DNA of 64,000 bases from Longimicrobiales bacterium (GCA_965218295.1 CBDCKN010000015.1:491348-555347), one strand, 5' to 3'. Shown: positions 15,913 to 36,666, numbered from the stretch's first letter. Made by a program: numbers and translations. Notes: generated by a model not told the origin, from the letters alone.

Positions 15913-16195
15913 GATCAGCGAGGGCCGGTGCTGATCGGCGCGTGCACATCAGACAACGAGGTGCATGTGCACCGAAACGCCATTTTCATGTGCGCGCCAG
16001 CGCTTCCTTATGTGGCTGGCTGTCTTACAGTTGCGGCACGGCCGGCGGAGCGGCGATGCCGCTCCGGAGCTTTCGGCCGTAGATGGGAGCGACCCCCCCT
16101 TTGGGGATGCCTCGATCGGCATCGGGGAGGGTTGGCATGTGCACACCCATGCCACTCTCCCACGGGGGGTCGCTCCCAGCCATGGATCCCTACGG
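15913..16195 (+). other. Conserved multi-hairpin non-coding element, copy A
   Basis: Stems GATCAGC/GCTGATC, GTGCACAT/ATGTGCAC, ACGGCCG/CGGCCGT and a 14-bp GGGAGCGACCCCCC (16085-16098)/GGGGGGTCGCTCCC (16164-16177) stem enclosing two hairpins. Homologous copies near 49.2 and 51.5 kb. Confidence 0.7.
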
Positions 16196-16417
16196 ACTGC
16201 CTCGGGAAGTTCCATAACACACGTGATGTCAGTTACTTACACATTCAGTGACTTTGCTCGTCCCCCCATTTCATCCACCGTTTTGAATCGGCTGTCGAGA
16301 GCCCTTCGTGGACGTGAACGGACTGTAACTGTTCGGCCAAGCCGTGGGGAGCGTCGTGTTGTCGGATCGTGTGGTGGGGTCTGGTAACGTGATCCGGAAT
16401 GTAGTATCGTCGAGGGC

Positions 16418-18688
16418 ATGGCGATGCGGGACGGCAACGGACATGCGAACGTGGCGCTGGCCGAGGGGCTGGAGGAGCTTTGGCCGGTGCCCGGTTCCGT
16501 GGAGTCGGAGCTTGGGGACTGGCGGTCGCTGTACGAGCGGGAGCGCGAGCGAGCGGAGGCGGCGGTGGCCCGCGCGGAGGAGTTGCGGTGGGCGGAGGTG
16601 CGGGCGCGCTGCGAAGCGGGATCGTGGAAGTGGCGGTGGGAGGCGTCGCGCCGGAAGCTGAGGGCGGTGATCGCGGAGACGCGGGAGGCCCGCCGCGCGG
16701 CGTGGGACGCCCTGGCGTTGCAGCGCGAGGTGGGGCGTCTGCACGGGCTGCTGCGGGAGGCCGGGGTGGACGCGGGGAAGCGCGGCACGGAGATGGCGCT
16801 TCGGATGGAGGTGGCACGGCTTCGCGAGGAGGGTTGGGCGCTGGAGAAGGCGCTCGATGCCCGCGCGGCCGAGGTGCAGAACCTTCACAAGGCCCGCATC
16901 GAAGCGGACGCGGACATCCTGGCGCTGCGGCGGCAGTTGCGCGAGATGCTCGAGATCCACGGCGAACTGTCGAAGCTGGGGGACCAGCGGGACCGGGTCG
17001 AGTCGCTGTCGGAGGAGGTCGGGGCGCTTCGCTGGGCGCTGAAGGTCTCGGAGGCGTCGAAGGGCCGCCTGACGGCGCGGCTGCGGCGTGCGGTCGAGGC
17101 GGGGCGGGCGCGGTCGCCGTCGGCCGCCGACGCGGAGTTGCGCAAGGCCTTGCGCAGATCGCGGCGCCAGAGGGCGACGATCGGCTCGCTGACGCGGGAG
17201 AAGACCCGGCTCGGCAGGAGGATGCGGGCGTCGCGGCGGCGGATCGAGCGCCTCGAGGGCCAACTGGCGAAGCTTCGCGCGTCGCGCACGGTGCTGCCGA
17301 AGGGGCAGTCCGGCGGCGCGTGCGAGAGGCAGGAGCGACCGCGTTCGGGGCGGCGGCGGGGCCAGCAGCCCGGCACGCCGGTCCACGGCCGCACCCCGCG
17401 CCCGGGGCTTGAGGAACGCACCGAGGAGCACAACCCGCCCGCCGATGCGCGGGTGTGCCGGGGTTGCGGGAGCCCGTACGCGGCCAACGGCGCCGAGGAG
17501 TCGGCCCTCGTCGAGATCGAGGTCCGGGCGCACCGGCGGGTGATCCGCCGCCCGCGCTGGCGGCGGACGTGCGGGTGCGCGTCGTCGCCCGCCGAAGTGA
17601 CGGCGCCCCCCGTGCCTCGGCTGTTCGCCCGCACGCCGTACGGGACGAGCGTCTGGTCGCGCTTCCTGTTCGAGCGCTACGCGTGCCTGCGCCCGCTGCA
17701 CCGGGTCTGCGGGTGGCTGTCCGACCAGGGTCTGCCGGTCTCGCCGGGCACGCTGGCGGACAGCGTGCACCGCTTGGCGCCGTTGTTCGAGCCGGTGGGC
17801 GCGGCGATCCTCGCGCACCAGAACGGCTCGGCGCTGCGCCATGCCGACGAGACCAGCTGGCGGGTGCGGGCGCTGCGCGACAGCGACGGATCGGGGTACG
17901 CGTGGCTGTGGATCTCGGTCGGCCGCGGCGCGGCCTACTTCCATGTGGATCCGTCACGCAGCGCCGAGGCGGCCCGGAAGCTGTTCGACGGGGCGCTGTG
18001 CCCGACGGTCCTCGTCTGCGACCGCTACAGCGGCTACAAGAAGCTGGCGCGTCTCCTCGGGGGCAGGGTCACGCTGTCGTTCTGCTGGGCGCACATGCGC
18101 AGGGACTTCATCCGGTGCGCGGCCGGGCACGTCCATCTGACCGGCTGGTGCCGGGAGTGGCTCGGGCGGATCGCCACGGTCTACCGCCTGCACAAGGCGC
18201 GGCTGGAGCTCCACGACCCCGGCCTCGAGCGCCAGAGCCCGGCGTTCGACGCGGCGCACGACGCGCTGAGCGAGGCGCTCGGCGGCATGTTCGCGGCCTC
18301 CGAACGCCAACTCGCCCGCCTGTCGCCAAAGGCGAGGGAGGGAGGGCCGCTGCGCTCGCTCCTCAACCACCGCGAGGGGCTGAGCGTCTTCCTCGACCGG
18401 CCCCGCGTGCCGCTCGACAACAACCTCGCCGAGCGGCTGCTGCGCGGCCCGGCCATCGGGCGGCGCCTGTCGTTCGGCTCCGACAGCGAGTCCGGCGCCC
18501 GGTTCACCGCGCTCATGTACTCGGTGACCGGCACCCTGAGGCTGAACGGCCTCGACGTGCCGCGCTGGCTCGCCGACTGGTTGGCGGCGTGCGCGCGCGG
18601 CGGCGGTCGCCCGCCGGGCGACCTGTCGCCCTGGCTGCCGTGGTCGATGGACGCCGGACGCAGGCGCGAAATGACGGCGTCCGCATGA
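16418..18688 (+). CDS. IS66 transposase (TnpC-like) with long coiled-coil N-terminus
   Basis: CxxC zinc finger, HADET, CDRYSGY, CWAHMRRDF and DNNLAERLLR motifs. Confidence 0.92.
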   Translation: MAMRDGNGHANVALAEGLEELWPVPGSVESELGDWRSLYERERERAEAAVARAEELRWAEVRARCEAGSWKWRWEASRRKLRAVIAETREARRAAWDALALQREVGRLHGLLREAGVDAGKRGTEMALRMEVARLREEGWALEKALDARAAEVQNLHKARIEADADILALRRQLREMLEIHGELSKLGDQRDRVESLSEEVGALRWALKVSEASKGRLTARLRRAVEAGRARSPSAADAELRKALRRSRRQRATIGSLTREKTRLGRRMRASRRRIERLEGQLAKLRASRTVLPKGQSGGACERQERPRSGRRRGQQPGTPVHGRTPRPGLEERTEEHNPPADARVCRGCGSPYAANGAEESALVEIEVRAHRRVIRRPRWRRTCGCASSPAEVTAPPVPRLFARTPYGTSVWSRFLFERYACLRPLHRVCGWLSDQGLPVSPGTLADSVHRLAPLFEPVGAAILAHQNGSALRHADETSWRVRALRDSDGSGYAWLWISVGRGAAYFHVDPSRSAEAARKLFDGALCPTVLVCDRYSGYKKLARLLGGRVTLSFCWAHMRRDFIRCAAGHVHLTGWCREWLGRIATVYRLHKARLELHDPGLERQSPAFDAAHDALSEALGGMFAASERQLARLSPKAREGGPLRSLLNHREGLSVFLDRPRVPLDNNLAERLLRGPAIGRRLSFGSDSESGARFTALMYSVTGTLRLNGLDVPRWLADWLAACARGGGRPPGDLSPWLPWSMDAGRRREMTASA

Positions 18689-19566
18689 GCGAGCGCATCG
18701 AATGCCGCTACCACGGGCGCGACTTCACCGCCGCGGAAATGGCGCTGCTGCGCCGACTGATCGCCGGACCGCCCGCGCTCAACCGCCACGCCCTGTCGAA
18801 GGAGTTCTGCCGGCGCATCGGCTGGTTCAAGCCCGACGGCGGGCTCAAGGACATGATGGCGCGCGTCACCATGCTCGCCATGCACAGCGACGGCCTCATC
18901 GTCCTGCCGCCCCCGAAGTGGAGGCAGAAACGACCCGGCCCCATCGTCTTCGGACAGGACACCGAACCGCCCCTCTTCCCCCCGCCCACGATCCTCGACG
19001 AGGTCCGCCCCCTCGAACTCCGCACCGTCGTCGGCGGCACCCGACAGGGCAGGCTGTGGAACGAGTTCGTCGCGCGCCACCACTATCTCGGCTACAAGAC
19101 CCTCGTCGGCGCCCAGATGCGCTACGCCGTCCACGACCGCAACGGCTGGCCGCTCGCCATACTCGGCTTCAGCACCGCCGCCTGGTCCCTCGCTCCACGC
19201 GACCGCTTCATCGGATGGACCCCGACCCTGCGAAAGAAGAACCTGCCGCTCGTCATCGACAACCCCAGGTTCCTCATCCTGCCCTGGATCCGCATCCCCA
19301 ACCTCGGATCCCACATCCTCGCCCTCGTCCGCCGCCGCCTGCCCCGCGACTGGACCCGCCGCTACAACACCACCCCCGTCCTCATCGAGACCTTCGTCGA
19401 GGTCCCCCGCTTCACCGGCGGCGTCTACAGGGCCTCCGGTTGGATCCGCGTCGGTACCACACGGGGACGAGGGCGCTACGACACCGCCAAGCAGTACGGC
19501 AAGCCCACCAAGGATGTCTGGCTCCGCCCGCTCGCCAAGCACTGGAAGCGCATCCTCAACCGCTGA
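18685..19566 (+). CDS. DUF4338 (DruA-like) domain protein
   Basis: HHYLGY, G.QMRY, RDRFIGW, NPRFLILPW..IPNLGSHIL and YRASGWI.VG.T.GRG motifs; ATGA overlap with the transposase. Confidence 0.85.
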   Translation: MSERIECRYHGRDFTAAEMALLRRLIAGPPALNRHALSKEFCRRIGWFKPDGGLKDMMARVTMLAMHSDGLIVLPPPKWRQKRPGPIVFGQDTEPPLFPPPTILDEVRPLELRTVVGGTRQGRLWNEFVARHHYLGYKTLVGAQMRYAVHDRNGWPLAILGFSTAAWSLAPRDRFIGWTPTLRKKNLPLVIDNPRFLILPWIRIPNLGSHILALVRRRLPRDWTRRYNTTPVLIETFVEVPRFTGGVYRASGWIRVGTTRGRGRYDTAKQYGKPTKDVWLRPLAKHWKRILNR

Positions 19567-20081
19567 GCACCCCCACACACACGATCCGACAACACGACGC
19601 TCCCCACGGCTTGGCCGAACAGTTACGAACGGATGGCCATCGCCTGCGCCCCCGTCCTTCCCGCCCCCTCAGCGGCTTTCAGAGCGGCGATCGGAGGTGC
19701 CCCGGAGGCGCCAGTCGGCCGCGACCCGGGGGGGTTCGGCCCGTTCCGCGGCCGCGGCAGGCCGAGAGGAGGCTCTTGGAGACCGTCAGAGCCGACTTCT
19801 CGGCGCTGGGTGACCCATAGGACCCCGGGATCCAGCGCGGAGCTCCCCTCGACCTTCAGTTTCGGCGGAGCCGAAGATCGGGGATCGACGGCGGCGCAGC
19901 CGACCCGCCCGGATCCTCCAGCCACTCGAGGACGTCCGCGTGCATGAGCGACACGACCGGCGAGGTATCCGAGCGTGGGCGCACGAGTCTGTTTGGTGCA
20001 CGGGAGGGAAGCACGTCTAGCCAGTCCCCGACGGGGGATTCCTTGAGGAACCGGCGCGCAGCCAACTTCCGCCCCCCGTCC

Positions 20082-20630
20082 TCACAGAAACCGCCGAACC
20101 CGGCTCCGATACTCCCGGTAAGCGTCGCCGTACTGCTCCTCCAGCCACAGCTCCTCGGCCAGCGGCGCAACCACGAACACCACCGCTAGGAGAAGGTGCG
20201 TGATCCACAGCAATAGCGAGTTCGCGATCACACTCACGCCCACGAAGCAGACGATGTCACCCAGGTACTGCGGATTCCGCGTGAACCGGTAGGGGCCGGT
20301 GGACACGAACCCGCCCTTCAACCCGCTCGTGTTCTTCCAGCCCACAGTGACCACTCCCCACACGGCCAGCAGGCCGCCGAGCACCACCAGGGGTACCCCA
20401 ATGATGAACCGTAAGGGGCTCTGGAAGACCCAGGAGTTCCAGTACATCAGGAGGAGAAGAACGTTGATCCCGATCACCGCCCAGAAGCCCGCCCAGGTCA
20501 GCAGATGCTGCCAGGAACCACGGCCCGGCGGTGGCCACAATCGCCTATCTGGGACGACGACCGACCAGACGGCTCCCGCCAACTGCGCGATTAGGATGAC
20601 GACGGCGACGCCGAAAAGGATGGTGGACAT
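20082..20630 (-). CDS. Isoprenylcysteine carboxylmethyltransferase/PEMT family membrane protein
   Basis: Multi-TM; GPYRFTRNPQYLG and EE..L...YG..Y..Y motifs. Confidence 0.88.
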   Translation of the reverse strand: MSTILFGVAVVILIAQLAGAVWSVVVPDRRLWPPPGRGSWQHLLTWAGFWAVIGINVLLLLMYWNSWVFQSPLRFIIGVPLVVLGGLLAVWGVVTVGWKNTSGLKGGFVSTGPYRFTRNPQYLGDIVCFVGVSVIANSLLLWITHLLLAVVFVVAPLAEELWLEEQYGDAYREYRSRVRRFL

Positions 20631-20815
20631 GTACGGATACCCCTGGGGCTGTCCCAGGTTGGTGGACAGGTGAGCGTTGAGCCTTCAGGGGATACTTGAC
20701 CTACTCCTCCTACTAGGAGAGCAAGGCTTCCCCCGAAGTGGGGATAAAGGTGCGTTCACGCGGCGGCGTTTCTGCTCGAACCCGGAAGACCTATCCTCGA
20801 CGATGGTCTTGCCAT

Positions 20816-22321
20816 TTACGCACTTCCTCCTGATGACTCAAGCTCCTGCGCAATGGCTTGAAACGCTTCCAATGCAATGTGTAAGTCTTCCACGATCTCG
20901 GCAGCCAGCACCTCAGGCTCGGGCAGGTTCTCGCTGTCCTCCAGTGATTCGTCCCGTAGCCAGAATATGTCGAGGTTTAGCTTGTCCCGCTTTAGCAGTT
21001 CCTCATAGCTGAACGACCGCCACCGGCCCTTCGGATCCTCTTCGCTCCAAATATTCTCGCGCTCGTGCCTCCGCCCAGCCTTGTAGCATTCCACGAAATC
21101 GTCGAGGTCTGCGCGCTGCAACGGCTTCGTCTTTAGCGTGAAATGCTTGTTCGTGCGGAGGTCATAGACCCACAGCCGTTCGGTCCATGCCTGCTCCCGT
21201 GCAGGCTTCCTGTCGAAGAACACCACGTTCGCCTTCACGCCCTGCGCGTAGAACAGGCCTGTTGGGAGGCGGAGCAGCGTGTGCACATCGAACTGCTGAA
21301 GCATGTTCTTACGGACGGTCTCACCCGCACCACCCTCGAACAGGATGTTGTCGGGCATGACGATGGCGCACCGGCCATGGATGCTCAGCAGCGTCTTCAC
21401 ATGCTGAAGGAAGTTGAGCTGCTTGTTCTTCGTAGTGGCCCAGAAGTCCTGGCGCTCGTAGGCGTGAGCCTCACTCTCCAGCCCTCCCGCTTCGTTCACG
21501 ATCTGGATACTGCTCCTCCTCCCAAACGGCGGATTTGTGAGTACCACTGAGAACCGCTCACCAGGGTCGCTCGCGAGGCTGTCAACACCCGAACGGATAG
21601 GGCACGGATCGGCGTCGATCCCGTGCAGGTACAGGTTCATGATCCCAAGGCGAGCGGTCGCAGGGACCAGTTCCCAGCCATGCACAAAGCCTTCGCGGAG
21701 ATGTCGCTTCTGGTCGGGATCCAGTTCCGTGCCGTGTTCTCGGGCGACATATTCGTGGACGGCAAGCAGAAAGCCTCCGGTCCCACACGCAGGGTCGCAA
21801 ACCGTATCATCGGGACGTGGCTGCATCACGTCCACGATGCCCTTGATCAGCTGACGGGGGGTGAAGTACTGACCGGCCCCCTTCGGTGATTCCTGAGCAG
21901 ACTTCGAAAGCAGCCCCTCATAGATGTCGCCCTTTACGTCGGCATGCATCGACATCCAACTCTCTGGATCGATGAGATCAACGATCAGCCTCTTCAAGGT
22001 CGCTGGGTTCTGAATCTCCTGTCGTGCTTTCTTGAAGATTTCTCCGAGCATCCCCGATTGCGTTCCGAGTTCCCGTAGGATGTGTCGGTAGTGCGACTCT
22101 AGCTCCTCGCCGTCGCGTGTGAGTAGGCTCGGCCAGTCCATGTCTTCCGGAACGATGGGGTCTCGGCTCCACGGCGGCTGGGTCTGCTCATGGGCCATCT
22201 TCAGGAAGAGCAGGAAAGTGATCTGCTCGGTGTAGGCCATATAGGAGAGCCCGTCGTCTCTCAAGACGTGCGCGAAGCTCCAGGCTTTGTTGACGACCTG
22301 TTGGGTGTGGTTGTTCGGCAT
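20816..22321 (-). CDS. hsdM: Type I R-M methyltransferase subunit
   Basis: GQYFTPR, DPACGTGG and TNPPF motifs. Confidence 0.95.
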   Translation of the reverse strand: MPNNHTQQVVNKAWSFAHVLRDDGLSYMAYTEQITFLLFLKMAHEQTQPPWSRDPIVPEDMDWPSLLTRDGEELESHYRHILRELGTQSGMLGEIFKKARQEIQNPATLKRLIVDLIDPESWMSMHADVKGDIYEGLLSKSAQESPKGAGQYFTPRQLIKGIVDVMQPRPDDTVCDPACGTGGFLLAVHEYVAREHGTELDPDQKRHLREGFVHGWELVPATARLGIMNLYLHGIDADPCPIRSGVDSLASDPGERFSVVLTNPPFGRRSSIQIVNEAGGLESEAHAYERQDFWATTKNKQLNFLQHVKTLLSIHGRCAIVMPDNILFEGGAGETVRKNMLQQFDVHTLLRLPTGLFYAQGVKANVVFFDRKPAREQAWTERLWVYDLRTNKHFTLKTKPLQRADLDDFVECYKAGRRHERENIWSEEDPKGRWRSFSYEELLKRDKLNLDIFWLRDESLEDSENLPEPEVLAAEIVEDLHIALEAFQAIAQELESSGGSA

Positions 22322-23847
22322 TAGAGGACTTGCTTCTTGCGTTTGTGTATCGGCCTCGCGGGGCGGCGCTTTCTCCGATTGCCTTCCTGGTCGGCTCGAA
22401 TGCGCTCAAGGAGGACGGAAGCGGGCTCGTCGGTAGGATCTTGTGGGACGAGGTGGCCCGCGAAGGCGAGTTTGAGGATGGATTGGCGGAGGCGGGCGGA
22501 AGTAGTGCGGCGCGATTTCACCGCCTCTAGTGATCGCTGCCAAACGTCCATCAGCTCCTGCACTAGATCCAATACGATTTTCTGCTCAGAAGCAGGTGGC
22601 AAAGGAAGGAGAAGCGGCAGAATGTCTTGATTGTTGATTTGGGGCACATTCGATCCGTCCGCTAGCACTGCAAGGTCGACGGACTGAAACCACCACCACA
22701 GCCATGTCCCAACGTCACCCACCGGGCTCATCGCCATGATGTTCAGATCGAGGCAGGACGAGACAGCGAGCTCCCTCTTCTTGTTGGTTGCTATGGCTCC
22801 CCCTCGCTTGGGGAATACAATTGTACCGGCAGGGAAGACCCTTAGCCCAAGAGCCTTTGCTTTGTTCATAGAAAGATAGGCCCTCGAGTGTTGCATGGCC
22901 CTCTCGTTCCCGGGCAGGTTCATATCGCCCACCTTGTACCACGGAACCTCACCTGTTGGTGTGACGTTGGCGGCCGCGCCTTTCGGCGTTTGGCCGCTAG
23001 AGATATTTGACACCTGATCCACCGTTGCCCAACACCATCCCTGCGGCAGTTCCGGCAGTTCGCCCTCATCCGGCCCTAGCGGTTCCTTGTACTTGTCCCT
23101 CCAGTTCCTGGGTGGTTTCCGGTCCCTGGCGGCAAACTTGGCAAGCTGCTCTTCCTCCCAAAGCTGTCTCCGCTCAACCAGAATCCGCTGAAGGAGCTCC
23201 GCGCCCGTCTCGTCGGGCGGATTCTTCCGTCTCCACTCCTCGGTCAGCCTCCCCTCGACCGCTGCCTTGAGCACTGAGGCTCGGTAGCGCTTCAGCTTTG
23301 CCTGGGCGCGCTCGAGTGCCGCAACGCCCGCATCCAGTTCGGAGAACAGTTCATCAAGCTTCGCGACGATACGGTGCTGCTCGGGGAGGGGGGCGAGAGG
23401 GATAGGAAACTCTCGTACGACCTTGCCGGATACGGCTTTGAATGTGGTGCCTGTTCCCTTGGTATCTAGTTCATCCGCATAGCGACGGAGTATGTACAGC
23501 ATGTAGCTGAGGCTTAGGCTGTTCTCGGGTCGTATCGCGGCCAAGCCGCGTCCTATGCAACACTTGTATGGTGCGAGATTGGTAGGTCCAACAGGCGCTC
23601 TGACAGACAGTAGGATATCGTCAGCAAGAGCTATTTTGTTTGGTTGAGTGCACCACACACGCGCTTCTGGATATAGGTTGCCGAACTCTGCTTTTCCCTG
23701 AAAAAAAGGCAACCCCACCCCGTCGTGGTTGTAAGTCACAGACGGCGGCGATTGTCCCATATTGACGAGAGCGACATCGGCAATACTAGCCGAGCACCAC
23801 CCCGCTGGTAGCTCAGAGCGGTCTGTAACGAGTTGATCATTGCTCAC
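22321..23847 (-). CDS. hsdS: Type I R-M specificity subunit
   Basis: Two TRDs with PLAPLPEQ/PLPPASEQ conserved regions; PQDPTDEPASVLLERI tail. Confidence 0.93.
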   Translation of the reverse strand: MSNDQLVTDRSELPAGWCSASIADVALVNMGQSPPSVTYNHDGVGLPFFQGKAEFGNLYPEARVWCTQPNKIALADDILLSVRAPVGPTNLAPYKCCIGRGLAAIRPENSLSLSYMLYILRRYADELDTKGTGTTFKAVSGKVVREFPIPLAPLPEQHRIVAKLDELFSELDAGVAALERAQAKLKRYRASVLKAAVEGRLTEEWRRKNPPDETGAELLQRILVERRQLWEEEQLAKFAARDRKPPRNWRDKYKEPLGPDEGELPELPQGWCWATVDQVSNISSGQTPKGAAANVTPTGEVPWYKVGDMNLPGNERAMQHSRAYLSMNKAKALGLRVFPAGTIVFPKRGGAIATNKKRELAVSSCLDLNIMAMSPVGDVGTWLWWWFQSVDLAVLADGSNVPQINNQDILPLLLPLPPASEQKIVLDLVQELMDVWQRSLEAVKSRRTTSARLRQSILKLAFAGHLVPQDPTDEPASVLLERIRADQEGNRRKRRPARPIHKRKKQVL

Positions 23848-26832: not shown

Positions 26833-27120
26833 TCACGCCGCCACAAAACTCTCCACCGCGATCTCCTCGGCGCGGCCGCGGGCCTGCCAGAGATCGTAGG
26901 CCATCTGCATCCCCAGCCAGGTCTCGGGCGTCGAGCCGAAGGCCTTAGACAGCCGTATCGCCATCTCTACCGAAACCCCCGTGCGCTCGTTCACCAACTC
27001 CGAAAGCGCCTGCCGGGTAACGCCCAACCCTTCGGCAGCACGGGTCACGGTCAGACCCAGGGGTTCGAGACATTGCCGCTTCACGATACCGCCCGGATGC
27101 GGAGGGTTGTGCATCGCCAT
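26833..27120 (-). CDS. higA: HigA antitoxin
   Basis: MHNPPHPG...MAIRLSKAFGSTPETWL.MQ signature. Confidence 0.93.
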   Translation of the reverse strand: MAMHNPPHPGGIVKRQCLEPLGLTVTRAAEGLGVTRQALSELVNERTGVSVEMAIRLSKAFGSTPETWLGMQMAYDLWQARGRAEEIAVESFVAA

Positions 27121-27133: not shown

Positions 27134-27412
27134 TCAGTGATAATCCACGTAGTTCACATCGACCGCCGCGCCGTCCTCGAACCGGAAGGTCACGCGCCAG
27201 TTGCCGGATACCGAAACCGCGTAGTGCCCCTTCAGCGGCCCCTTGAGTGCGTGTAACCGGAACCCCGGCAGACTCATGCCCTCCGGCCCCCGGCTGAAAT
27301 CGAGTGCCGCCAGGATGTCCCGCAACCTGCCTACATGCTCCGGCGCGACTCGCTGTGCCGTCCTTCCCTCATAGAGCGCCTTCAGCCCCCGGTGGCGGAA
27401 CGATGCAATCAC
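27134..27412 (-). CDS. higB: HigB toxin
   Basis: MIASFRHRGLK...LHALKG...SVSGNWRVTFRF...DYH; upstream of higA. Confidence 0.93.
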   Translation of the reverse strand: MIASFRHRGLKALYEGRTAQRVAPEHVGRLRDILAALDFSRGPEGMSLPGFRLHALKGPLKGHYAVSVSGNWRVTFRFEDGAAVDVNYVDYH

Positions 27413-27870
27413 TGCGGAATTCTAGTCCGTCGCCTGTCAAATGACAATTGGCGATCCCAGATGGGGTCGGTTCACACGGTAGTGCGGCGGCCTTCTCATT
27501 CGGACAGCTACACCGGGGCTGATCCGCCAAGATGCGTTCAGAGTGTCGTTCCCTATCCCGCTCCCCAGCGGGTACGCGGCGCCGGGGCGCCCGAGCCCGT
27601 ATGCAGCGGTAGCCGCTCGGGTCACTCCCAGCAACGGCAGCTTGGCGACCCTTTCCTCCGCGGGCTGCTAGGAGTCGCCACAGCTTTGCGCGGCTCCCTC
27701 GGTGTACTTCACGCGTCCGTTGGCAGAGCCCGGTCCGCCTCTAGTACGTCGCTGGAACTCTAGGGACATCGCCTCTTTGCCCGTTGTTGACACGGCATGA
27801 AGCGGGCTCCTCAATGTACGGGTATGGAGATTCTGACGGCCCAGGGTTCCCAGCGCCGGGGGCTGTCTGG

Positions 27871-27960
27871 CGCACTTAAGGTGCGTAAGCCAGCCCACGC
27901 AATGTTGAACATTGCGCTCTGGCGAGGGGATGCTGCGCCCCCCTTCGAACCCCCGGCTTC
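27871..27960 (-). other. ColE1-type oriT (nic CTGG^CTTA)
   Basis: TAAGCCAG at 27886-27893 flanked by hairpins CGCACttaagGTGCG and CGCAATGTtgaACATTGCG, followed by GCTGCGCCCC as in the ColE1/pBR322 bom region; directly upstream of mobC. Confidence 0.75.
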
Positions 27961-28028
27961 CCGCGCTGCTGCCGGGGCAGCGGGCGGGCGGGAGCCGCCG
28001 CCCCCCGAACCCCGTCGCCTGTGCGCTC

Positions 28029-28370
28029 ATGGCTGATCGCCGCACCGTCATGGTCGCCGCCCGCGTCACGCCGGCGGAGCATGCCGCTTGGCAAGACAAG
28101 GCGGAAGCGGCGGGCGTGTCGCCGTCCGCGCTGCTGCGGCAGGCGATGGCGCGGACGCGAACGTGGACCGCGCCGGCACTGGCCGTCGAGCGCGAACGCA
28201 GCCGCCAGATCGCGCGCATCGGCAACAACCTGAACCAGCTCGCGCGCTGGGCGAACACGCACGCCTCGGCGGTCGAGGCCGCCGCGGTGATCGCCAACCT
28301 CGTGTCGTTCGAGCGGTCGCTGCTCGCTGCCATGGCCCGCTTCGACGGAGATGGCGGGGATGCACATTAA
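28029..28370 (+). CDS. mobC: MobC/MbeC relaxosome accessory protein
   Basis: RHH-like N-terminus and IARIGNNLNQLAR motif. Confidence 0.9.
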   Translation: MADRRTVMVAARVTPAEHAAWQDKAEAAGVSPSALLRQAMARTRTWTAPALAVERERSRQIARIGNNLNQLARWANTHASAVEAAAVIANLVSFERSLLAAMARFDGDGGDAH

Positions 28371-29880
28371 GTGCCTCCGGCGCGGCAGGGGCTCGGCCCG
28401 TGCGGCGGTCGACTATCTCGTCGGCGAGCGGGACGCCGAGGGGCAGAGGCGCGAGGGCGTCGAAGTCCTGCGCGGGAACCCGGACATGGTGGCCGCCGTT
28501 GCCGACTCGCTGGAGTTCGAGCGCAAGTACACGTCGGTCGTGATCGCGTGGGCGCCGGACGACCAGCCGCCCGACGAGCAGATCGGAGCCGTCCTCGACG
28601 AGTTCGAGAAGACGGCGTGGGCCGGATTGGGGCCGGACCGCTACTCATGGACGGCGGTCCTGCACCGCGAGCGCGGGGGTGGCGTCCACGTGCACGTCCT
28701 CGCCGCGCAGTGCGACCTGGAGACGGGCCGCAGCCTGAACATCGCGCCGCCCGGCTGGCAGAGGACCTTCGACCCGCTGCGCGACGCCTTCAACCACGAG
28801 CACGGCTGGAGCCGCCCGGACGACCCGGCGCGGGCCAGGGCGCAGCAGCCGGGCCATCGCGCCTACATCGAGGCGTCGAAGCTGCGGGCCGGGCTTGCAC
28901 ACGAAGCCGACCCGCGCGAGTTGATCCGCGACTACCTGGTGCAGCGCGTCGAGCACGGCGCGGTGCAAAGCCGCGCCGACGTGGTCTCCGCCCTGGAGGA
29001 CGTCGGCCTTGAAGTGCCGCGCCAGGGCAAGAGCTGTGTGACCGCCCGCGATCCGGACAGCGGAAAGCGGTGGCGGCTGAGAGGAGAACTGTATGAGTAC
29101 GACTTCCGACCCGAACGTCTTGACTTCCCGGCTGCGCCAGCGGCTGGAGACCGACCGCCGGCAGATCGAGGAGACGGCCGTGCGCGAGCTCGAGCGGCTT
29201 GGCGCGAGGTCGGGCGCCGTCGCAAGCGGCGCGCTGCGTTCCATCGAGGCCGATACGGCGTCGGCGACCGCGCGGGTGAGCGTCCTACTGAGGCGCGCGT
29301 GGCTCCGGCCCCTGGTGGTCGGCCTGAGCCTTTTTCTCGGTATCAGCGGCGGCAGCTGGGCGACGATGCACTGGTTGTCGAGGAGCATCGAACGCCGGAT
29401 CGAGACTTTGGCGGCGGTGAACGTGGAGATCGAGCAGGCGCGAGTGGTCCTGGCCGAGATCGAGGAGACGACCTGGGGCGTGACGCTGCGGGAGATCGAC
29501 GGAGAGCGGTTCGTGGTGCTGCCGGCCGGCACGCTGGACCGTCCGCCCTGGACCGTGGGCGAGCGGCCTGCCGTGAAGCTGTCGAGAGAGTGAAGGAGCT
29601 ATATGACCGAGCTAGAACGGCAGTTGACGGCGGCCTTGGAGACGTTGTCCGCGCAGTACGGGACGGAACAGCGGCGGCACTGCGAGCAGGTCGAAGCCTT
29701 GCGGCAGCGGGTCGAGCGGCAGGCCGCGCAGAGCGAAACCTTGCAGGAGCAAGTCGAGCGGCTCACCGGGCAAATGACACGCTTGGCCCAGGACTACAGG
29801 ACGCTCGCCGCGACGTTGCGCGCGCGCTGGAAGTGATGCGCCAGCGTGGACGAGAGCGCGACCATGGTCCGAGCCGCTGA
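28360..29880 (+). CDS. mobA: MbeA/MobA-type relaxase
   Basis: RGRGS...VDYL, VLRGNP, KYTS and LHRERGGGVHVH motifs, resembling ColE1-family relaxases. Confidence 0.88.
   Translation: MHIKCLRRGRGSARAAVDYLVGERDAEGQRREGVEVLRGNPDMVAAVADSLEFERKYTSVVIAWAPDDQPPDEQIGAVLDEFEKTAWAGLGPDRYSWTAVLHRERGGGVHVHVLAAQCDLETGRSLNIAPPGWQRTFDPLRDAFNHEHGWSRPDDPARARAQQPGHRAYIEASKLRAGLAHEADPRELIRDYLVQRVEHGAVQSRADVVSALEDVGLEVPRQGKSCVTARDPDSGKRWRLRGELYEYDFRPERLDFPAAPAAGDRPPADRGDGRARARAAWREVGRRRKRRAAFHRGRYGVGDRAGERPTEARVAPAPGGRPEPFSRYQRRQLGDDALVVEEHRTPDRDFGGGERGDRAGASGPGRDRGDDLGRDAAGDRRRAVRGAAGRHAGPSALDRGRAACREAVERVKELYDRARTAVDGGLGDVVRAVRDGTAAALRAGRSLAAAGRAAGRAERNLAGASRAAHRANDTLGPGLQDARRDVARALEVMRQRGRERDHGPSR
29093..29593 (+). 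CDS. MbeB/MobB-like protein nested in mobA (alternative frame)
   Basis: AGGAG RBS, coiled coil plus TM segment; same position as ColE1 mbeB. Confidence 0.7.
   Translation: MSTTSDPNVLTSRLRQRLETDRRQIEETAVRELERLGARSGAVASGALRSIEADTASATARVSVLLRRAWLRPLVVGLSLFLGISGGSWATMHWLSRSIERRIETLAAVNVEIEQARVVLAEIEETTWGVTLREIDGERFVVLPAGTLDRPPWTVGERPAVKLSRE
29603..29836 (+). CDS. MbeD/MobD-like protein nested in mobA (alternative frame)
   Basis: MTELERQLTAALETLSAQY N-terminus typical of MbeD; AAGGAG RBS. Confidence 0.8.
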   Translation: MTELERQLTAALETLSAQYGTEQRRHCEQVEALRQRVERQAAQSETLQEQVERLTGQMTRLAQDYRTLAATLRARWK

Positions 29881-29965
29881 TGGTCCCGGCTTAGGAATCG
29901 CCCGGCGCTCGAGGATCGGTGGAGGTCCTTCGGGCGGATGGGGTGCGGCCTATGGTTCTGGAGTG

Positions 29966-30300
29966 TCATTGGCCAAGTACGCCGCCCAATCTCAGAAGCT
30001 CGAGCGAAAGCCGTGCCGGAACAGTCGCGATATCGAACTTCCGGAATCTCCGGTGCAGTTGCGTCTCATCGAGCCGCTTACTAACCCAATTGGGAAAGAC
30101 GAATGGACTAGTGCCCTCCCACGAACGTCTGTGCCGCGTCGAGAATCTCCATCGCGCGGCCACACAGCCGCACTCGGTGCTCCCGGTTCGACTTCGTCCG
30201 CCTAGCCAGACCCGTCCAGACGCTCTGCTCCCGATCGATCTCAATCCACTCGGCCCACCGGACCTCGCCCCACCGCGCTCCCGTCAGCACTACGAACTCG
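29966..30300 (-). pseudogene. P4-like integrase C-terminal remnant
   Basis: LTGARWGEVR...TKSNREHRVRL and DWAAYLAN pieces homologous to the integrase at 35284-36501. Confidence 0.75.
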
Positions 30301-30591
30301 AATGGCAGCCGGACGAGCGGTACTGCCGACGCCCGTTCCGTCGGGATGGCTCCCCTCGGGGTGGCTACTTTGCCTGAGATTGACTATTCAAGGGAGTGGC
30401 CGACACGCGATGGATGACCACGGCCTACGTCGAGGCACGTCGAGCGTTCTGGTGCTATGCGTCAGCACGGGGAATGCAGCCGTACAATCGTCGTCCGGAG
30501 AGTAAAACAGCCAATCGTCGGCAGCCCTCCTACGGGAAGAAATCGGCCCCATCTGATGCAGGCTGCCCCAATCGCAAGATATCCCACTCCG

Positions 30592-31947
30592 ATGCATAAC
30601 AAAATACCCCGTCCAGCAGAACTCGCGGAATTCAGGATGCTTTACCTGGCTTTTACGGAGATAATGCTAGATTTGACTAGCAAACGATATACGGCTGCCG
30701 ACGCGAAACAATTGACTAGAAATATCGCAGCGCAAGAACCATTTATTCCTTCGCCTGATGATGACGACTTTCCGCATGAACTCGCGCAAAAGTGCGCGGA
30801 TGTGTTTTGTTCCTTGGAACTCACCGATTTGAAGCTTTCGGACAACGCCGGAACTCCAATCGAGAATCCGAGTGTCGAACAGCTTCGGCCGTTTATCATC
30901 CATATGGAACTCAATCGTCCGATACGGTACTTGGTACGGGAGTATGGCAAGACATCTTTTTCTAGAGACCAAATTTCAGTTTGTCTAAACAGATACATCG
31001 CCCATTGGACCGGCGAAACAGCGACCGATGCGGAATTCGCCCCGATATATAACTTCGAGACCGATATTCGGGTCATCAAACTCAGTGACCTTGTTTCCAT
31101 TGTGCACTTCACTGACGAAAATAAAAACAAGATTATGAGAACGCTCGGGCCGTTGGAACGGGCAATCGATACACGAAACTACGCTAGTGCCTCTCGGGTG
31201 GCGAGGCTGCGTCCGATTGAAGGCTTTTATGACAAAGAGACGAAGCGCGAAATCCGGGAACACGCACGCAAGAACCTACAATGTGCTGTCACATCGCTGC
31301 GGCTCATGAAGCCGGAGGCAATCGGGACCATGGGATACATCAGATTCCGAGGGCTAGGAGGGGACCGTGGAGCCGGTGTTAGCCCGCAAGAAGAATTCGA
31401 TCTGCCCTGGAACTGGTTTTCGAGTATTCGTGATAGATATGTACTTAATCGCTCAGATCTACCTAGATTCCGCAAGCTCTATAACATGCTGAGTAGAAGT
31501 GAATTTGAAACGTGGGATCGGCTGGCATTGCTGTTGCGTCAATTCAATCGCTCCTGCCAGAGGGAACGAGATGAAGATCGAATACTTGATTACGCGACTT
31601 GCCTTGAGAGCGCGTTGTTATCTGGCGTCAACACTGAATTATCGTACCGTCTTGCACTTCGTGCAGCGAAGCTTCTTCGAGACCAGCGCAATCCAGAGCA
31701 GACCTTCAAACATATACGATGTTTGTACAATGTCAGAAGCAGAATCGTTCATTCGAATGAATCATTCACCAATGCTATGGTAGATACGTATGCTAGGCGG
31801 GTTGGCCTCCGCCCACGCGAGTTCATGCGGTCGACGAACGCATTGATGCGTGAACTGTTGTCTACGGTCATTGAGCATGTGTCCCAGGGGAAGGTTCTCG
31901 CAAAGCTATGCGAAGACCTGGACGATAAAATTGTGAAGTCCCTTTGA
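30592..31947 (+). CDS. HEPN-domain protein (ApeA-like); start uncertain
   Basis: LES.L....ELSYRLALRAA.LL and LYNVRSRIVH (Rx4H-type) motifs; lower GC than flanks. Confidence 0.75.
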   Translation: MHNKIPRPAELAEFRMLYLAFTEIMLDLTSKRYTAADAKQLTRNIAAQEPFIPSPDDDDFPHELAQKCADVFCSLELTDLKLSDNAGTPIENPSVEQLRPFIIHMELNRPIRYLVREYGKTSFSRDQISVCLNRYIAHWTGETATDAEFAPIYNFETDIRVIKLSDLVSIVHFTDENKNKIMRTLGPLERAIDTRNYASASRVARLRPIEGFYDKETKREIREHARKNLQCAVTSLRLMKPEAIGTMGYIRFRGLGGDRGAGVSPQEEFDLPWNWFSSIRDRYVLNRSDLPRFRKLYNMLSRSEFETWDRLALLLRQFNRSCQRERDEDRILDYATCLESALLSGVNTELSYRLALRAAKLLRDQRNPEQTFKHIRCLYNVRSRIVHSNESFTNAMVDTYARRVGLRPREFMRSTNALMRELLSTVIEHVSQGKVLAKLCEDLDDKIVKSL

Positions 31948-32609: not shown

Positions 32610-33926
32610 GTGCGATCTCTCTTGTATGCTGGTCCTTTGACCCAAGTTAAACCCGCCTTGAAGACAATAAAGTTTTCTAAATTAATTGAAGTCTTTCGGG
32701 AAATCTGTGAATTGTCTTCTATACAGAGGTCAAAGCAATCATGGAAATACGATTTTGACCTGTCCTTGACTTTTCTTGAATCACGTTCACTAGACAAGCA
32801 CATTACTTTTGCTTCTCGTAACTTCAAGACGCTGCCTTTGAATAGCGAAAGGCATCTGTACGAAATGAATGACATTGTCATTCGAAATCTCCAAATCAAT
32901 CTCGACGATCAAAAGGGATTGACTATCCATGATGACTGGCACCCGCTCTCCTTCGCAAAGTGGCATTTTGAAAATTGCCACTTTGCATCTTCATCCGTGA
33001 ATATGTGGCACATCGGCTTTCCTTGGCGTGGCTCCTTCCGGTTTTACAAGAACGACTTTGATTTTCCATTACGACATCCTGGAGGTCGTTGGTCGTTTGG
33101 TTTTGCGGAGGGAAGCAAAATCTTGTTTCAAGGGAACGATTTCAAGCGAAATAATGCCCAGATTGGCTTCACGACTTCCGGGACAGATCGAGACGCAACT
33201 GATAGGGAACATTCTACCCGGCATAGACTAGGAAATTTGTCACTTGTGGGAAACAAGGGAATACAGGAGTTGCTAGTACTGGAAGGTTGCCCATCCGTAT
33301 TGTTTTCTGGAATGAATCGTATAGAGAAATTGTCTTTATCACAATTGTCGGAGGGAGGACAGATACGGAATGTAACGGTATATTTTGGGCCGCGTGAAAA
33401 GATAGATTCGCAATTTCACTACTGTATGCATCACAGACGTCTGTTTATGTCCGTGAAGGATCTGGCAGCAATGAACCACGACACACGCCAAGAAAACGTA
33501 TTGGATAAACAGCTAGAACGCATCGAGTATTTTTTTAATAAGGAACAAGATACTCCGTCGCCGGCGGATTATCGTATTTCGATCGAGTACTGGCAGGACA
33601 GAGTGTTGTACGCGTGGAGGCGGTGGTCATCAGATTTCTACAGATCCTGGTTGCGCCCCCTAAGCATGATTGTACTAGGCTATATGCTGTTGAATGCGAT
33701 ACCAGTGTTGTTTATTGATACTTTTTCTCTCTCCCAGTGGATCGAGCTTACTCTTCGTCCGATAAGCGACATCGCCAGATATGAGGAGAAAGTGAGTCAG
33801 ATACTTTCGAGTGACTATGCCATGGTTTCTGTATCAGAGCGGAATATATTGAGACTTGTTGGCTTGATCGAAGTGATTTGGATTGCTATGTGGAGTTTTG
33901 CTTTCGCGAAGGCCATAAGGAAATAG
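32610..33926 (+). CDS. Hypothetical low-GC protein with C-terminal TM helices; start uncertain (possibly 32865)
   Basis: Long AT-rich ORF; SDFYRSWLRPL motif followed by TM segments. Confidence 0.65.
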   Translation: MRSLLYAGPLTQVKPALKTIKFSKLIEVFREICELSSIQRSKQSWKYDFDLSLTFLESRSLDKHITFASRNFKTLPLNSERHLYEMNDIVIRNLQINLDDQKGLTIHDDWHPLSFAKWHFENCHFASSSVNMWHIGFPWRGSFRFYKNDFDFPLRHPGGRWSFGFAEGSKILFQGNDFKRNNAQIGFTTSGTDRDATDREHSTRHRLGNLSLVGNKGIQELLVLEGCPSVLFSGMNRIEKLSLSQLSEGGQIRNVTVYFGPREKIDSQFHYCMHHRRLFMSVKDLAAMNHDTRQENVLDKQLERIEYFFNKEQDTPSPADYRISIEYWQDRVLYAWRRWSSDFYRSWLRPLSMIVLGYMLLNAIPVLFIDTFSLSQWIELTLRPISDIARYEEKVSQILSSDYAMVSVSERNILRLVGLIEVIWIAMWSFAFAKAIRK

Positions 33927-34060
33927 GGCGACATACGGAGCGAATATGTAATCACCCACTGAATCCTGTGTCGAGACGCTTGTGTAGTGAGTGTGATAGA
34001 TAACAGACTGGAGGATCATTCACAGCCGTAGGCAGTCGATCACTCACGACTGCCGCCGGC

Positions 34061-35291
34061 TGTACAGAGATGGTAATGACCTGACAGTTGGCCCTCGCCG
34101 GAGCTGTGTCTAGGCTGCCTTCGTCTTAGCCTCCTCCTTCCTGGCCTTTGCGGCCTTCCTGGCGTCGGTGAGACCGGCCTTGAAGACCTGATAGGGCGTG
34201 CGGCCCTCCATGGCTCGACCGCGGTGCGGCCGCTTCCGGTTGTAGGTCTCCAGATACGCCTCGAGGTCCTGCTGCATCTCCTCGACGGTCTCGTACCAGG
34301 TGGTGCGGCCCTTCACCCTCAAGTGCTCGTCGAGGAGCGTGCGGTGGAAGCGCTCGATGAAGCCGTTGGACTGGGGCCTGCCCACCTTCGTCGTGCGGTG
34401 CTCGATGTCCTCGAGCTGAAGGAACAGCTCATATGGGTGACGGTCCGGACGGCCGCAGAACTCGCGGCCGTTGTCGCTGAGCACGGTCTTCACCCGGACC
34501 CGGTGCTCATCGAAGAACGGCAACACGTCGTTATTCATCACCTGCACCGCCGTGAGCGGGAGCTTGCTCGTGTAGAGCCGGCCCCAGGCGTAGCGGCTGA
34601 AGCAATCGAGCACGGTCTGCAGGTACACCTTGCCGACCCCCTTCAGCGTTCCGACGAAGAACGTGTCCACGGCGACGAGGTCGCCCGGGTAATGGACTTC
34701 GATGTGGCGCTCCCGGAACTCGGGACTGAAGCGCTCCAGCAGCTCGATCTGCTCGTCGGTCAGCTTCAGCTTCCGTTCCCTGGCCGTCTCTTCGAGCCTG
34801 AGCAGCCGTTCGTGCTTCGTGGTGAGGCCATGCCGGCTCCACACGCCCCGTACGCCTCCTGAGCTCACCTGGATCCCTCCGAGCAGCAACTCGTCCGCGA
34901 CCCGCTGAGCTCCGTGCGTCGGAGCCTCCAAGGCGTGGGCCAAGACCGCCTGCTCAATCTCTTCACTCACCCGGTTCGGGTGCGGTCCCTTCGGCCCCGG
35001 AAGCTGGTCGATCAGCCCCTCGGCCCCGTAAAGCTGGAAGTTCCTCCTGATCTCGTAGAACTGCTGCCGGCTGTAGCCCACGATCTTGCACGCCTTGCTC
35101 ACGTTGCCGAGCTCCTGGGCCAACTGTAGCAGGCTCAGCTTGCGGCGCGCTATCTTCTCCCCCTGGACGGTGGTCATCTTCTCTCCCGTGCTAAGTGAGT
35201 GACTTCGACATCTCTCAATTAGCTCCGGCGAGGGCGGCTGGCCACCGTCCTCTCTCGTGGTCAACTGTCAGGTGAATACCGTCTCAGCACA
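34061..35291 (-). mobile_element. IS481-family element
   Basis: TGT...ACA ends with imperfect 30-bp IRs; 7-bp DR CGCCGGC at 34054-34060 and 35292-35298. Confidence 0.93.
34110..35177 (-). CDS. IS481-family transposase
   Basis: LAQELGNVSKAC HTH; VDTF, SDNGREF and SNGFIERFH DDE motifs. Confidence 0.93.
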   Translation of the reverse strand: MTTVQGEKIARRKLSLLQLAQELGNVSKACKIVGYSRQQFYEIRRNFQLYGAEGLIDQLPGPKGPHPNRVSEEIEQAVLAHALEAPTHGAQRVADELLLGGIQVSSGGVRGVWSRHGLTTKHERLLRLEETARERKLKLTDEQIELLERFSPEFRERHIEVHYPGDLVAVDTFFVGTLKGVGKVYLQTVLDCFSRYAWGRLYTSKLPLTAVQVMNNDVLPFFDEHRVRVKTVLSDNGREFCGRPDRHPYELFLQLEDIEHRTTKVGRPQSNGFIERFHRTLLDEHLRVKGRTTWYETVEEMQQDLEAYLETYNRKRPHRGRAMEGRTPYQVFKAGLTDARKAAKARKEEAKTKAA

Positions 35292-36501
35292 CGCCGGCGA
35301 GGTACGCGGCCCAGTCGTCCATGAGCCGGCGCCGGCGCTCGAACAGATCCGTGCGCCGGTAGGCCGCCTCGACCGGGTTTCGGACCTTGTGTGCCAGCGC
35401 CGCCTCCACGACCTCGCGGGGATGATCCGTATCTTCGGCCGCCCAGTCCCGGAAACTCGACCGGAACCCGTGCGGCACAGCCGCGATCTTTAACTCCCTG
35501 AGCAGTTCCGACAGCGCCGTGGTCGCAATGGGGTTTCTGCGCAGGCCTGGAAACACGAGCGGGCTGCCGCGATCGAGCACCCGCGCCTCCTCGAGGATCT
35601 CCAGCGCACGCCGGCACAGCGGGACCCGGTGCTCGCGCGCCGCCTTCGTGCGTCGGGCCGGGATGATCCACGCACCCTCGCCCCGGTCGATCTCCGTCCA
35701 GAGCGCCCCACGCACCTCGCCGGAGCGTGTCGCCGTCAGCACCAGAAACTCGAATGCCAGCTTCACGACCGGCCGCGCGTTCGACCTCCGCACCGTCTCG
35801 ATCGCCGCCGACACCTGGCCGTGCGGCAACGCCCGCATGTGTCGAACGACGCCCCCCTGCGAACCGAGCACCGGGCCGATCCGGTCGCACGGGTTGTCGG
35901 GCCTGAGACCCATCGCCACCGCCCACTCCATGACCGCGCGGATGCGCTGGCGCAACTTCCGGGCCGTGGGCGGCATGTCGTGCCAGATCGGAGCGAGGAT
36001 CCCGATCACGTCGGCGCTCGTCACCTCCGAAATCGGCATCTTCCCGATGCGAGGAACAGCGTAGCGCTCCAGGCTGCTCAACCAGAGCTGCGCATGCTGG
36101 GGGGAGCGCCAGCCCGGCCGCAGCTGCTTCCAGACCTGCCGGGTCGCGTCCGCGAAGGTGGGCGTCGACTCGACCCGCTGCTTCTCCGACAGGGGATCGC
36201 CTCCCTCGCGGGCGAGCTTCCGGTTGGCGAACGCCTGCTCTCGGGCTTCCTTCAGCGAGACCAGGGGGAATCCGCCGAGCCCGAGCTCGGTTCGGCGGCC
36301 GCGGATCGTGAGGCGCTGGATCCAGCCCCGGCTGCCCGAGGGCCGCACATCGAGATAGAGGCCCTGGCCGTCACAATAGCGTCCGGCCTGGCTCACGTTG
36401 CGCACGAAGGCAGGCGTCAGGGCGTTGTTGGGATGCCGGCTGCGCGGCTTGCGTTGCGGGGGTCGTGTGGGGAGTGTTATACATACCAATATATCCACCA
36501 C
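35284..36501 (-). CDS. P4-like tyrosine integrase 1 (last codons replaced by IS481)
   Basis: Arm-binding domain (DGQGLYL...LGLGGFP.VSLKEAR), TATRSGEVR, HGFRSSFRDW, ALAH and catalytic AAY. The original end YLAGGSRE* lies beyond the IS. Confidence 0.93.
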   Translation of the reverse strand: MVDILVCITLPTRPPQRKPRSRHPNNALTPAFVRNVSQAGRYCDGQGLYLDVRPSGSRGWIQRLTIRGRRTELGLGGFPLVSLKEAREQAFANRKLAREGGDPLSEKQRVESTPTFADATRQVWKQLRPGWRSPQHAQLWLSSLERYAVPRIGKMPISEVTSADVIGILAPIWHDMPPTARKLRQRIRAVMEWAVAMGLRPDNPCDRIGPVLGSQGGVVRHMRALPHGQVSAAIETVRRSNARPVVKLAFEFLVLTATRSGEVRGALWTEIDRGEGAWIIPARRTKAAREHRVPLCRRALEILEEARVLDRGSPLVFPGLRRNPIATTALSELLRELKIAAVPHGFRSSFRDWAAEDTDHPREVVEAALAHKVRNPVEAAYRRTDLFERRRRLMDDWAAYLAGVC

Positions 36502-36666
36502 AGATTAGCGGATGCAAGGGGTCGAAGCGGATCGGTATGGGACAGGAGAGATCCTTATACATCGTGATAAGTCAATATAAACAAGTCAGTTATATGCGTT
36601 ATGGGACTTTGCTGGACGAGATGGCTATTCTCAACATGGCTGCCCTACGGGAAGGTTGTCAGAGCG

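Follow-up and report, generated by a model that had tools for sequence, protein, structure and literature searches.

The stretch of DNA analysed here (the window, 64,000 nucleotides of a Longimicrobiales bacterium, GCA_965218295.1 CBDCKN010000015.1:491348-555347) raises the question of why a 20-kb island lies between the type IV secretion system (T4SS) operon and the virD4 gene in an integrative and conjugative element (ICE), and how such an island could move. The island is probably an integrative and mobilizable element (IME) that inserts at a fixed palindrome within the likely origin of transfer (oriT) of its host ICE, excises before the host transfers, and rides the host's channel. It has precise ends and empty counterparts, its integrase clade has a target of its own, it has moved between hosts, and it has no secretion genes. 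Below, the source assembly (90.7% complete) is called G000 and its contigs bear C numbers, fetched loci bear L numbers, and G001, G002, G124 and G125 are other genomes with sister islands.

The island spans 16188-36650 (20,463 bp counting both repeats), and its ends are an 8-bp direct repeat, CCCTACGG, found on the + strand at 16188-16195 (attL core) and 36643-36650 (attR core). The attL core is part of the target palindrome, TCCY-N3/4-RGGA followed by AGG, and the attR core is followed by host GAAGG, at the same place in 13 of 16 members of the integrase clade. An earlier note on this DNA had read the left junction as CATGGATCCCTACGG|ACTGCC and the right junction as TGCCCTACGG|GAAGGTTGTCAGAGCG-ATG, and had reported two intact copies of the joined site; both junctions read as it had them, the virD4 start lying at 36667, and the copies B (49483-49528) and C (51462-51507, minus strand) were found as described. 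The 8-mer occurs three times on the + strand of the window and many times across the genome, and on its own the repeat is no better than chance; the proof of the boundaries is carried by the empty sites.

A search with the flank covered 41 genomes, 7 of which had a match, and returned 30 loci. At L017 the flank (94% identity over 1296 bp) runs directly into GAAGGTTGTC..ATG of virD4, and virD4 is likewise next at the empty loci L033, L024, L013, L014, L020, L021, L027, L031 and L036. The occupied loci L011, L023 and L029 have an identical left end, ACTGC(C/T)TCGGG. Within G000 itself, a second copy of the T4SS on C13 (90% over 7.6 kb) has the flank continuing straight into virD4, and C3 holds a near-exact joined form of the empty site. 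The T4SS-side flank thus joins virD4 both in relatives and in other copies in G000, which is the contiguity that the earlier note had proposed to look for.

The enzyme that would select this site is a P4-like tyrosine integrase (35284..36480, - strand; PF13356, PF22022 and PF00589, i.e., Arm-DNA-bind_3, Phage_int_M and Phage_integrase) with intact catalytic motifs R-K-H-R-H-Y. Genomic-island integrases of the P4/CP4-57 type mostly target tRNA, tmRNA or conserved genes. The island's integrase shares with them the three-domain layout and a gene that adjoins the attachment site and points inward, but the window contains no tRNA gene, and just 2 of 120 relatives have a tRNA less than 900 bp upstream. 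These 120 distinct integrases (alignment of at least 300 amino acids, flank of at least 330 bp) came from G000, from loci returned by homology searches and from 40 further fetched regions; they were picked by similarity to the window integrase, so the shares of the various targets among them are not population frequencies. The motif CC-N4/5-GGAAGG is present in the flank of 13 of the 120, all among the 16 with at least 81% identity to the window integrase, and in none of the other 104; in 12 of the 13 the distance to the motif is exactly equal. A survey of the sites used by close homologues, also proposed in the earlier note, accordingly places 13 of the 16 clade members at the same site.

Related integrases have other sites in the same kind of ICE. 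Host-ICE modules are adjoined by 47 of the 120 integrases, at about 16 clade-specific sites: the palindrome (13), virD4 (13; codons ~181, 243, 255 and 506), virB4 (6; codons ~10, 158 and 633), gene X (4; codon 160), the ICE integrase (3), the upstream part of the target region (2), ardC (2), virB8 (2; codons 63 and 79), virB5 (1) and virB11 (1). Gene X, introduced more fully below, lies between virB8 and the target region. The sites follow clades on a FastTree tree of the 120 sequences, the sister clade of the window integrase (76-78%) targeting virD4 codon 243. The tree does not establish a single origin of ICE targeting: it was midpoint-rooted with few outgroups, and a distant 29% group contains the elements at virD4 codon 255 and in virB5. 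ICE modules account for about 1% of the G000 genome, and 10 of its 19 integrases adjoin them. The radiation of P4-like integrases onto this ICE explains why many ICE copies are fragmented.

Outside ICE modules, 7 of the 120 integrases adjoin the integrase or relaxase of another IME, and 66 have no assigned ICE gene beside them; when 36 unassigned flanks were searched by BLAST against 80 gene X loci, most had no match. Three clades have constant target sequences (L243-L246, L046, L255 and L266; L047, L075, L248, L251, L252 and L254; L259-L264 and L270), the last of which seems to use the ends of a different IME family as its insertion sites. The clade of L096 and L099 inserts in a repeated "VTVTV" surface-protein-like coding sequence.

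Six members of the island family were delimited: the window island (20,463 bp) and sisters in G125 (21,552 bp), G001 (15,371 and 10,043 bp), G002 (7,092 bp) and G124 (4,252 bp). Each has a perfect 8-bp repeat that is its own host's variant of CCCT[A/C/G]CGG (CCCTACGG, CCCTCCGG or CCCTGCGG). The G125 sister, in another genus and another host variant, lacks both insertion sequence (IS) passengers of the window island (IS66 and IS481) and has an integrase with 97% identity, restriction-modification (R-M) proteins with 95-96% identity and identical HigBA. By these comparisons, the island moves between genera and between host variants. R-M genes are present in four of the six members, and the sisters without a relaxase retain part or all of the segment resembling the IME's own oriT. 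No match to virB or virD4 was found inside the island or its five sisters, so the island is without a T4SS of its own.

If the island is an IME of the kind proposed, its insertion would break the palindrome without a replacement copy, and its 20 kb would part the T4SS operon from virD4, virB11, ardC and gene Y, silencing host transfer. Excision would restore both the palindrome and the contiguity of T4SS and virD4, and the island would have to leave before the host transfers. Its circle, nicked at the island's oriT by the MOB_P relaxase that the island encodes, would pass through the restored host T4SS, and would re-insert into the next copy of the target region, while relaxase-less sisters would use a relaxase in trans. 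Excision followed by transfer has a precedent in the IME_oriT of Firmicutes, in the available text of PMC7563843.

Several observations weigh against this account. The palindrome is occupied by this island family in just one of 80 gene X loci; three of the 16 clade members (L041, L085 and L242) are elsewhere or have lost the end; only two of the six delimited members have a relaxase; the G000 assembly has no intact virD4; and the start of virD4 comes next at only six of the 13 occupied attR ends, the rest lying in copies of the region that are virD4-less or interrupted. The last count indicates that the target is the non-coding region itself and not the junction of T4SS and virD4. The earlier note had described a satellite of a helper ICE placed between the T4SS operon and the gene for VirD4. 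The site and the contiguity of its flanks stand, whereas virD4 is not always next and the helper role we can only infer, because neither excision nor transfer was observed and the window's host ICE is broken.

These observations invite a different explanation, that the island is a site-specific lodger at a palindrome that is simply common and neutral for the cell, and that it is moved passively or by unrelated helpers. Besides the seven occupied sites without virD4 and the broken host, this explanation would accommodate the four members without a relaxase, the related clades that hit other integrases and IME relaxases, and the large number of integrases at sites without an assigned ICE gene. 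It is nevertheless unlikely: near-identical elements in different host variants and two genera need independent movement, the relaxase-less members keep part or all of the oriT-like segment, and over half of the integrases in G000 are concentrated on about one hundredth of its genome.

What, then, is the target? The island is inserted in a small palindrome, covarying among relatives, that lies at the 3′ end of a conserved inverted-repeat region of about 290 bp (15905..16187, + strand) between X and virD4, with outer arms GGGAGCGACCC at 16085-16095 and GGGTCGCTCCC at 16167-16177. The region folds strongly as DNA (z -6.6). An alignment of 57 sequences shows 99.1% pairing across the 4-bp palindrome and the outer 11-bp inverted repeat, with both sides changed in 43 cases; none of 500 shuffles reached this covariation score. 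There is no G-U pair among 855 cells of the alignment and no one-sided change to G-U; both-sided changes without G-U fit an inverted repeat maintained at the DNA level, a protein-bound site that belongs with X. Neighbouring genes point the same way. Of the 80 X loci, 74 have an intact palindrome; 46 of the 80 have both T4SS and virD4, 11 have virD4 without T4SS, and 20 have neither, and the palindrome is kept in 16 of those 20, so it travels with X and not with virD4. Among named records, gene X is found mostly in Longimicrobiales and Gemmatimonadota, and also in some Acidobacteriota and Gammaproteobacteria bins.

Two kinds of reduced element also carry X with the region. One consists of X, the region, virD4 and an integrase without T4SS (L167, L178, L179, L190, L211, L215, L216, L220 and L234), and the other of an integrase, X and the region without virD4 or Y (L174, L175, L181-183, L198, L201, L209 and L241). 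Both are likely to be further hitchers.

We consider it moderately likely that the target region is the oriT of the host ICE. In MOB_C systems the oriT lies between the mating-pair-formation (MPF) operon and the downstream DNA-transfer (Dtr) genes, according to the available part of a preprint (bioRxiv 10.64898/2026.01.13.699239), and the corresponding position of the target region supports this identification. MOB_C relaxases combine a winged helix-turn-helix (wHTH) with a PD-(D/E)XK nuclease domain (PMC12857230, in the text available), and the wHTH plus nuclease-like architecture that is predicted for X and suggested for Y would fit a MOB_C-like host.

The product of X (14972..15907, + strand, overlapping virB8) is predicted to have a wHTH N-terminal domain and a restriction-endonuclease-like C-terminal domain. 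Its AlphaFold model (pLDDT 84.6) matched, by VIA-align, MarR-like proteins (Z 8.3), SdaI (Z 7.6, root-mean-square deviation 3.7 over 118 amino acids) and NucS (Z 6.9). The matches to nuclease folds (Z 6.8-7.6) are middling, and conserved acidic catalytic residues are missing from the X alignment. X matched no Pfam family, and Foldseek against the PDB returned nothing at E<=0.001. Y is an unannotated wHTH protein (L186 15525-16409) with invariant P217-D218, E236 and K250 in 25 close sequences; it is present in 26 of 49 T4SS loci and in none of the 31 other X loci. Y is the best candidate for the relaxase of the host ICE. PF13814 (MOB_C/Replic_Relax) had no match in G000 and none to X or Y.

The oriT assignment has its own difficulties. 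The covariation counts come from related sequences, and the events are not independent; no nic site was located in the target region and no host relaxase proved; and the sequence GGGAAGG, 11 nt before the virD4 start, could be a ribosome site. In profile-profile comparison with Replic_Relax, Y matched over the wHTH only (probability 54.8%), and the top 50 rows of its fold search were wHTH only, leaving the nuclease part barely probed. X was also tried as a Replic_Relax protein and rejected, the match being confined to the wHTH with a probability of 4.8%.

The possible ribosome site lies within the small hairpin, and the region also folds strongly as RNA (z -4.75), as would be expected if it were a regulatory leader (promoter, attenuator or ribosome-site hairpin) of virD4 and the genes downstream, the expression of which the island would cut. 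The retention of the palindrome in loci with neither virD4 nor T4SS and the lack of G-U pairs both speak against a leader; promoter and terminator scans gave no consensus (a weak test at this G+C content), and Rfam gave no family for the region, only two sub-threshold chance matches. A leader is a distinctly improbable identity for the target. It is very improbable that X and the region form a replication module (initiator and origin) of excised elements with the island landing in the origin, since the co-occurrence of X and region in three element types, with Y in only part of the T4SS loci and in no others, the wHTH of X and the repeated 8-bp motifs of the region are set against the absence of a terminal repeat, the mark of a circular contig, from all 80 X loci, of any match to X in 72,556 plasmids and of any Rep family match, and against the location of X inside the transfer operon.

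No AlpA or HTH_17 excisionase was matched in the island, nor alpA in the five sister islands, and the single AlpA in the searched window is that of the host ICE (6943..7095, + strand; AlpA domain PF05930, E 1.1e-21), where the T4SS operon begins. With no excisionase matched in the island and host alpA in this position, excision may be timed by host induction: the island would borrow host AlpA, coupling its excision to induction of the host. We advance this tentatively and with somewhat less than even confidence; against it, an alpA is present within certain related elements from other clades (e.g., L090). In the assembled contigs of public runs (9 holders, none recorded as RNA), no attP junction (…GCTGCCCTnCGG|ACTGCC…) or attB junction was among the matches listed.

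The earlier note had also pointed to ATCCACC inside both ends of the island. The motif is there, at 16273 and 36493, but it recurs at 23017, and the window's + strand has six occurrences in all; a longer arm-like motif, conserved in the sister ends, includes it. The left motif (16266..16279, + strand; …CCATTTCATCCACC), conserved in sister attL ends, is a likely arm site of the integrase, and the right motif (36484..36499, + strand; ACCAATATATCCACC), conserved across the clade, may have the same role. The integrase gene starts with ATA in the window and with ATG in 14 of the 15 other clade members; at 36478, all the contigs there from four public runs have C, the base that an ATG start requires. 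The final codons have been replaced by IS481. With such a start codon and 3′ end, this copy of the island is probably impaired.

From its left end, the island carries IS66, a PEMT-like gene, a Type I R-M system, higBA, a likely oriT, a ribbon-helix-helix (RHH) gene and a MOB_P/MbeA-like relaxase, then a decayed piece of an integrase and two uncharacterised proteins, and lastly IS481 and the integrase. The profile matches bear out most of the cargo described in the earlier note: the P4-type integrase domains, the Type I R-M system, HigBA and the mobilization pair. Its description of the island as defence-laden holds for R-M and HigBA and is weak for the HEPN protein and for DruA, a DruA-like gene that rides in IS66. 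The Type I R-M system (20816..26639, - strand, Pfam) consists of hsdM (20816-22321), hsdS (22321-23847) and hsdR (23844-26639), with PADLOC matches to MTase_I (8e-184), Specificity_I (2e-84) and REase_I (2e-45). The toxin-antitoxin pair higA (26833-27120) and higB (27134-27412), also on the - strand, is identified by TIGR02607 over its cut-off and by PF05015. R-M and HigBA likely serve maintenance and defence.

The putative oriT of the island (27870..28000) comprises an inverted repeat and TAAGCCAG at 27886, which we take to be the reverse of the ColE1-type nic CTGG/CTTA; a check of papers did not show it. Beside it are the RHH relaxosome accessory gene (28029..28370, + strand; NikA/MobC-like, PF21983 4.6e-14, PF05713 2.9e-10) and the MbeA-like MOB_P-type relaxase with an HxH motif (28351..29880, + strand; PF03432; NF047848 2.6e-28, below cut-off). 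Behind the relaxase is a reversed 30-bp piece of gene X (29902-29931), and the G125 sister has X codons 1-68 at a like place (L295 7558-7761). Then follow a decayed fragment of another P4-like integrase (29980..30485, - strand; tblastn 44%) and an uncharacterised protein (30457..31947, + strand) with a C-terminal RxxxxH (RSRIVH). The HEPN assignment is weak: the motif is present, but the protein had no profile match in Pfam, PADLOC or NCBIfam, and its nearest named cluster in the atlas, HEPN_Apea (score 0.89, 15% of members), leaves HEPN-like as a lead only. The second uncharacterised open reading frame (ORF; 32610..33926, + strand) is low in G+C, encodes C-terminal hydrophobic segments in translation, and belongs to no family in profile scans. 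A PEMT-like membrane methyltransferase (20082..20630, - strand; PF04191) completes the cargo other than insertion sequences.

The two multicopy IS passengers account for 4.5 kb of the island. The IS66-family element (16325..19626, + strand; Pfam/NCBIfam) has 49-bp inverted repeats and identical copies on C3, C12 and C14; it encodes the transposase (16418-18688) and a DruA/DUF4338-like ORF (~18685-19566). The genome has at least seven near-identical copies of this element with its DUF4338/DruA-like gene, including a tandem pair on C12. The IS481 element (34061..35292, - strand; NF033577), with a GCCGGC target duplication in the last integrase codons, has many near-identical copies.

The gene order of the intact host ICE is alpA, virB2-B3-B4-B9-B10-B5-B6-B8, X, the target region, virD4, virB11, ardC, Y, two small genes and an integrase. 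In the window, the operon virB2-B3-B4-B9-B10-B5-B6-B8 (7167..14975, + strand) was identified by Pfam and by tblastn with an intact relative, virB5 being named from gene order only. Beyond the island only codons 1-181 of virD4 are present (36667..37209, + strand; 84% to the intact 679-residue VirD4 of L079); a second P4-like element interrupts the gene at codon ~181, and the integrase of this element (37389..38573, + strand) belongs to a clade that mostly targets codon 160 of gene X. From 37207-38580 of the window, virD4 may go on at C12 242870-196626, where the contig end has codons 178-243, a P4-like element of 41 kb lies at codon 243, and beyond it are codons 246-679, virB11, ardC and Y. If this join is real, one ICE may contain three serial P4-like elements within about 1 kb of host DNA; the C12 link is unproved, and C3 297564 is a second candidate for the continuation.

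Behind the second integrase, 38642-39076 is a mosaic of reversed short pieces of X, virB5, the virB10/virB5 junction and an IME oriT; it is probably a deletion remnant, though its pieces run antisense to the host genes. Just upstream of host alpA, a Type ISP R-M gene is split by an IS256-like element (1093-6192). Elsewhere outside the island are an inverted IS3-family duplication (42506-45642) with 1253-bp arms that also match 1-612 of the window, an HNH protein (49971-50987), and a reverse transcriptase (55114-56994) whose best PADLOC match is RT_UG22 (7.5e-94), a candidate defence reverse transcriptase.

IMEs within ICEs are treated as known in the available part of a review (PMC11389934), and nesting is common in Faecalibacterium, as far as the text available of PMC12084326 goes. 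A literature search, with most subscription papers and supplements outside it, turned up no publication about this ICE family or the elements embedded in it. IMEs that target the oriT or conjugation genes of a helper ICE have been described mainly in Firmicutes, and here the integrase type, the relaxase and the phylum are other. The radiation, with a separate site in one compact ICE for every integrase branch, is a natural series for the study of target change in tyrosine integrases. The island also points to a candidate for the oriT and nick region in an ICE family without a recognised relaxase, shows one way in which restriction systems pass from genus to genus, and offers a direct test of whether embedded satellites control helper transfer.

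The following comparisons draw on the available passages of the papers cited. The closest functional likeness is to the IME_oriT of Firmicutes (PMC7563843, PMC5704250, PMC5357655), which are likewise tyrosine-integrase IMEs, site-specific in a conserved non-coding transfer site of the host ICE, with their own relaxase and with secondary sites also in use. The island differs in having a P4-type integrase with an arm domain, a MOB_P/MbeA-like relaxase or none in place of MobT, defence cargo, a target whose identity as oriT is a matter of likelihood, and a Gram-negative MPF_T-type host without a recognised relaxase (no Rep_trans relaxase was matched among the host ORFs scanned). Because the relaxase and the host differ, the island works like an IME_oriT but is not a member. 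Streptococcal IMEs with serine integrases insert in traG/virD4, maff2 and snf2 of Tn5252-family ICEs (PMC5357655); they share insertion in conserved conjugation genes, a proposed restoration of transfer by excision, and frequency in decayed ICEs, but the elements described here have P4-type tyrosine integrases, Gemmatimonadota-type hosts instead of Firmicutes, and many more target sites. On the host side, pAD1 TraX and CloDF13 MobC of the MOB_C systems have the wHTH plus restriction-endonuclease-like architecture (PMC12857230) proposed for X and Y, and the modules of X, region and virD4 without T4SS resemble MobC+VirD4 IMEs (PMC5357655), whereas the host has no PF13814 match, has two such proteins, and has an X that lacks the acidic catalytic residues.

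Finally, the helper-embedded PICIs (HE-PICIs; PMC10111431) resemble the present radiation in that integrase subclades each keep one of many sites in the helper's transfer machinery, with no replacement sequence, co-oriented arm-like motifs flanking the core, off-target insertions and many truncated helpers. In contrast to HE-PICIs, the helper here is conjugative and not a prophage, one target is non-coding, alpA is not beside the integrase, and no primase or capsid genes are among the island ORFs scanned. A bolder proposal, which for now appears doubtful, is that these elements are the conjugative counterpart of HE-PICIs: they would have spread over the roughly 16 sites of one unclassified ICE family, with one branch reaching the oriT itself, dropped their own excisionase in favour of host AlpA and come to gate conjugation, leaving just as the host switches on its transfer operon, and the place where the window island is inserted would be the nick region of a novel relaxosome, MOB_C-like and built of two proteins.

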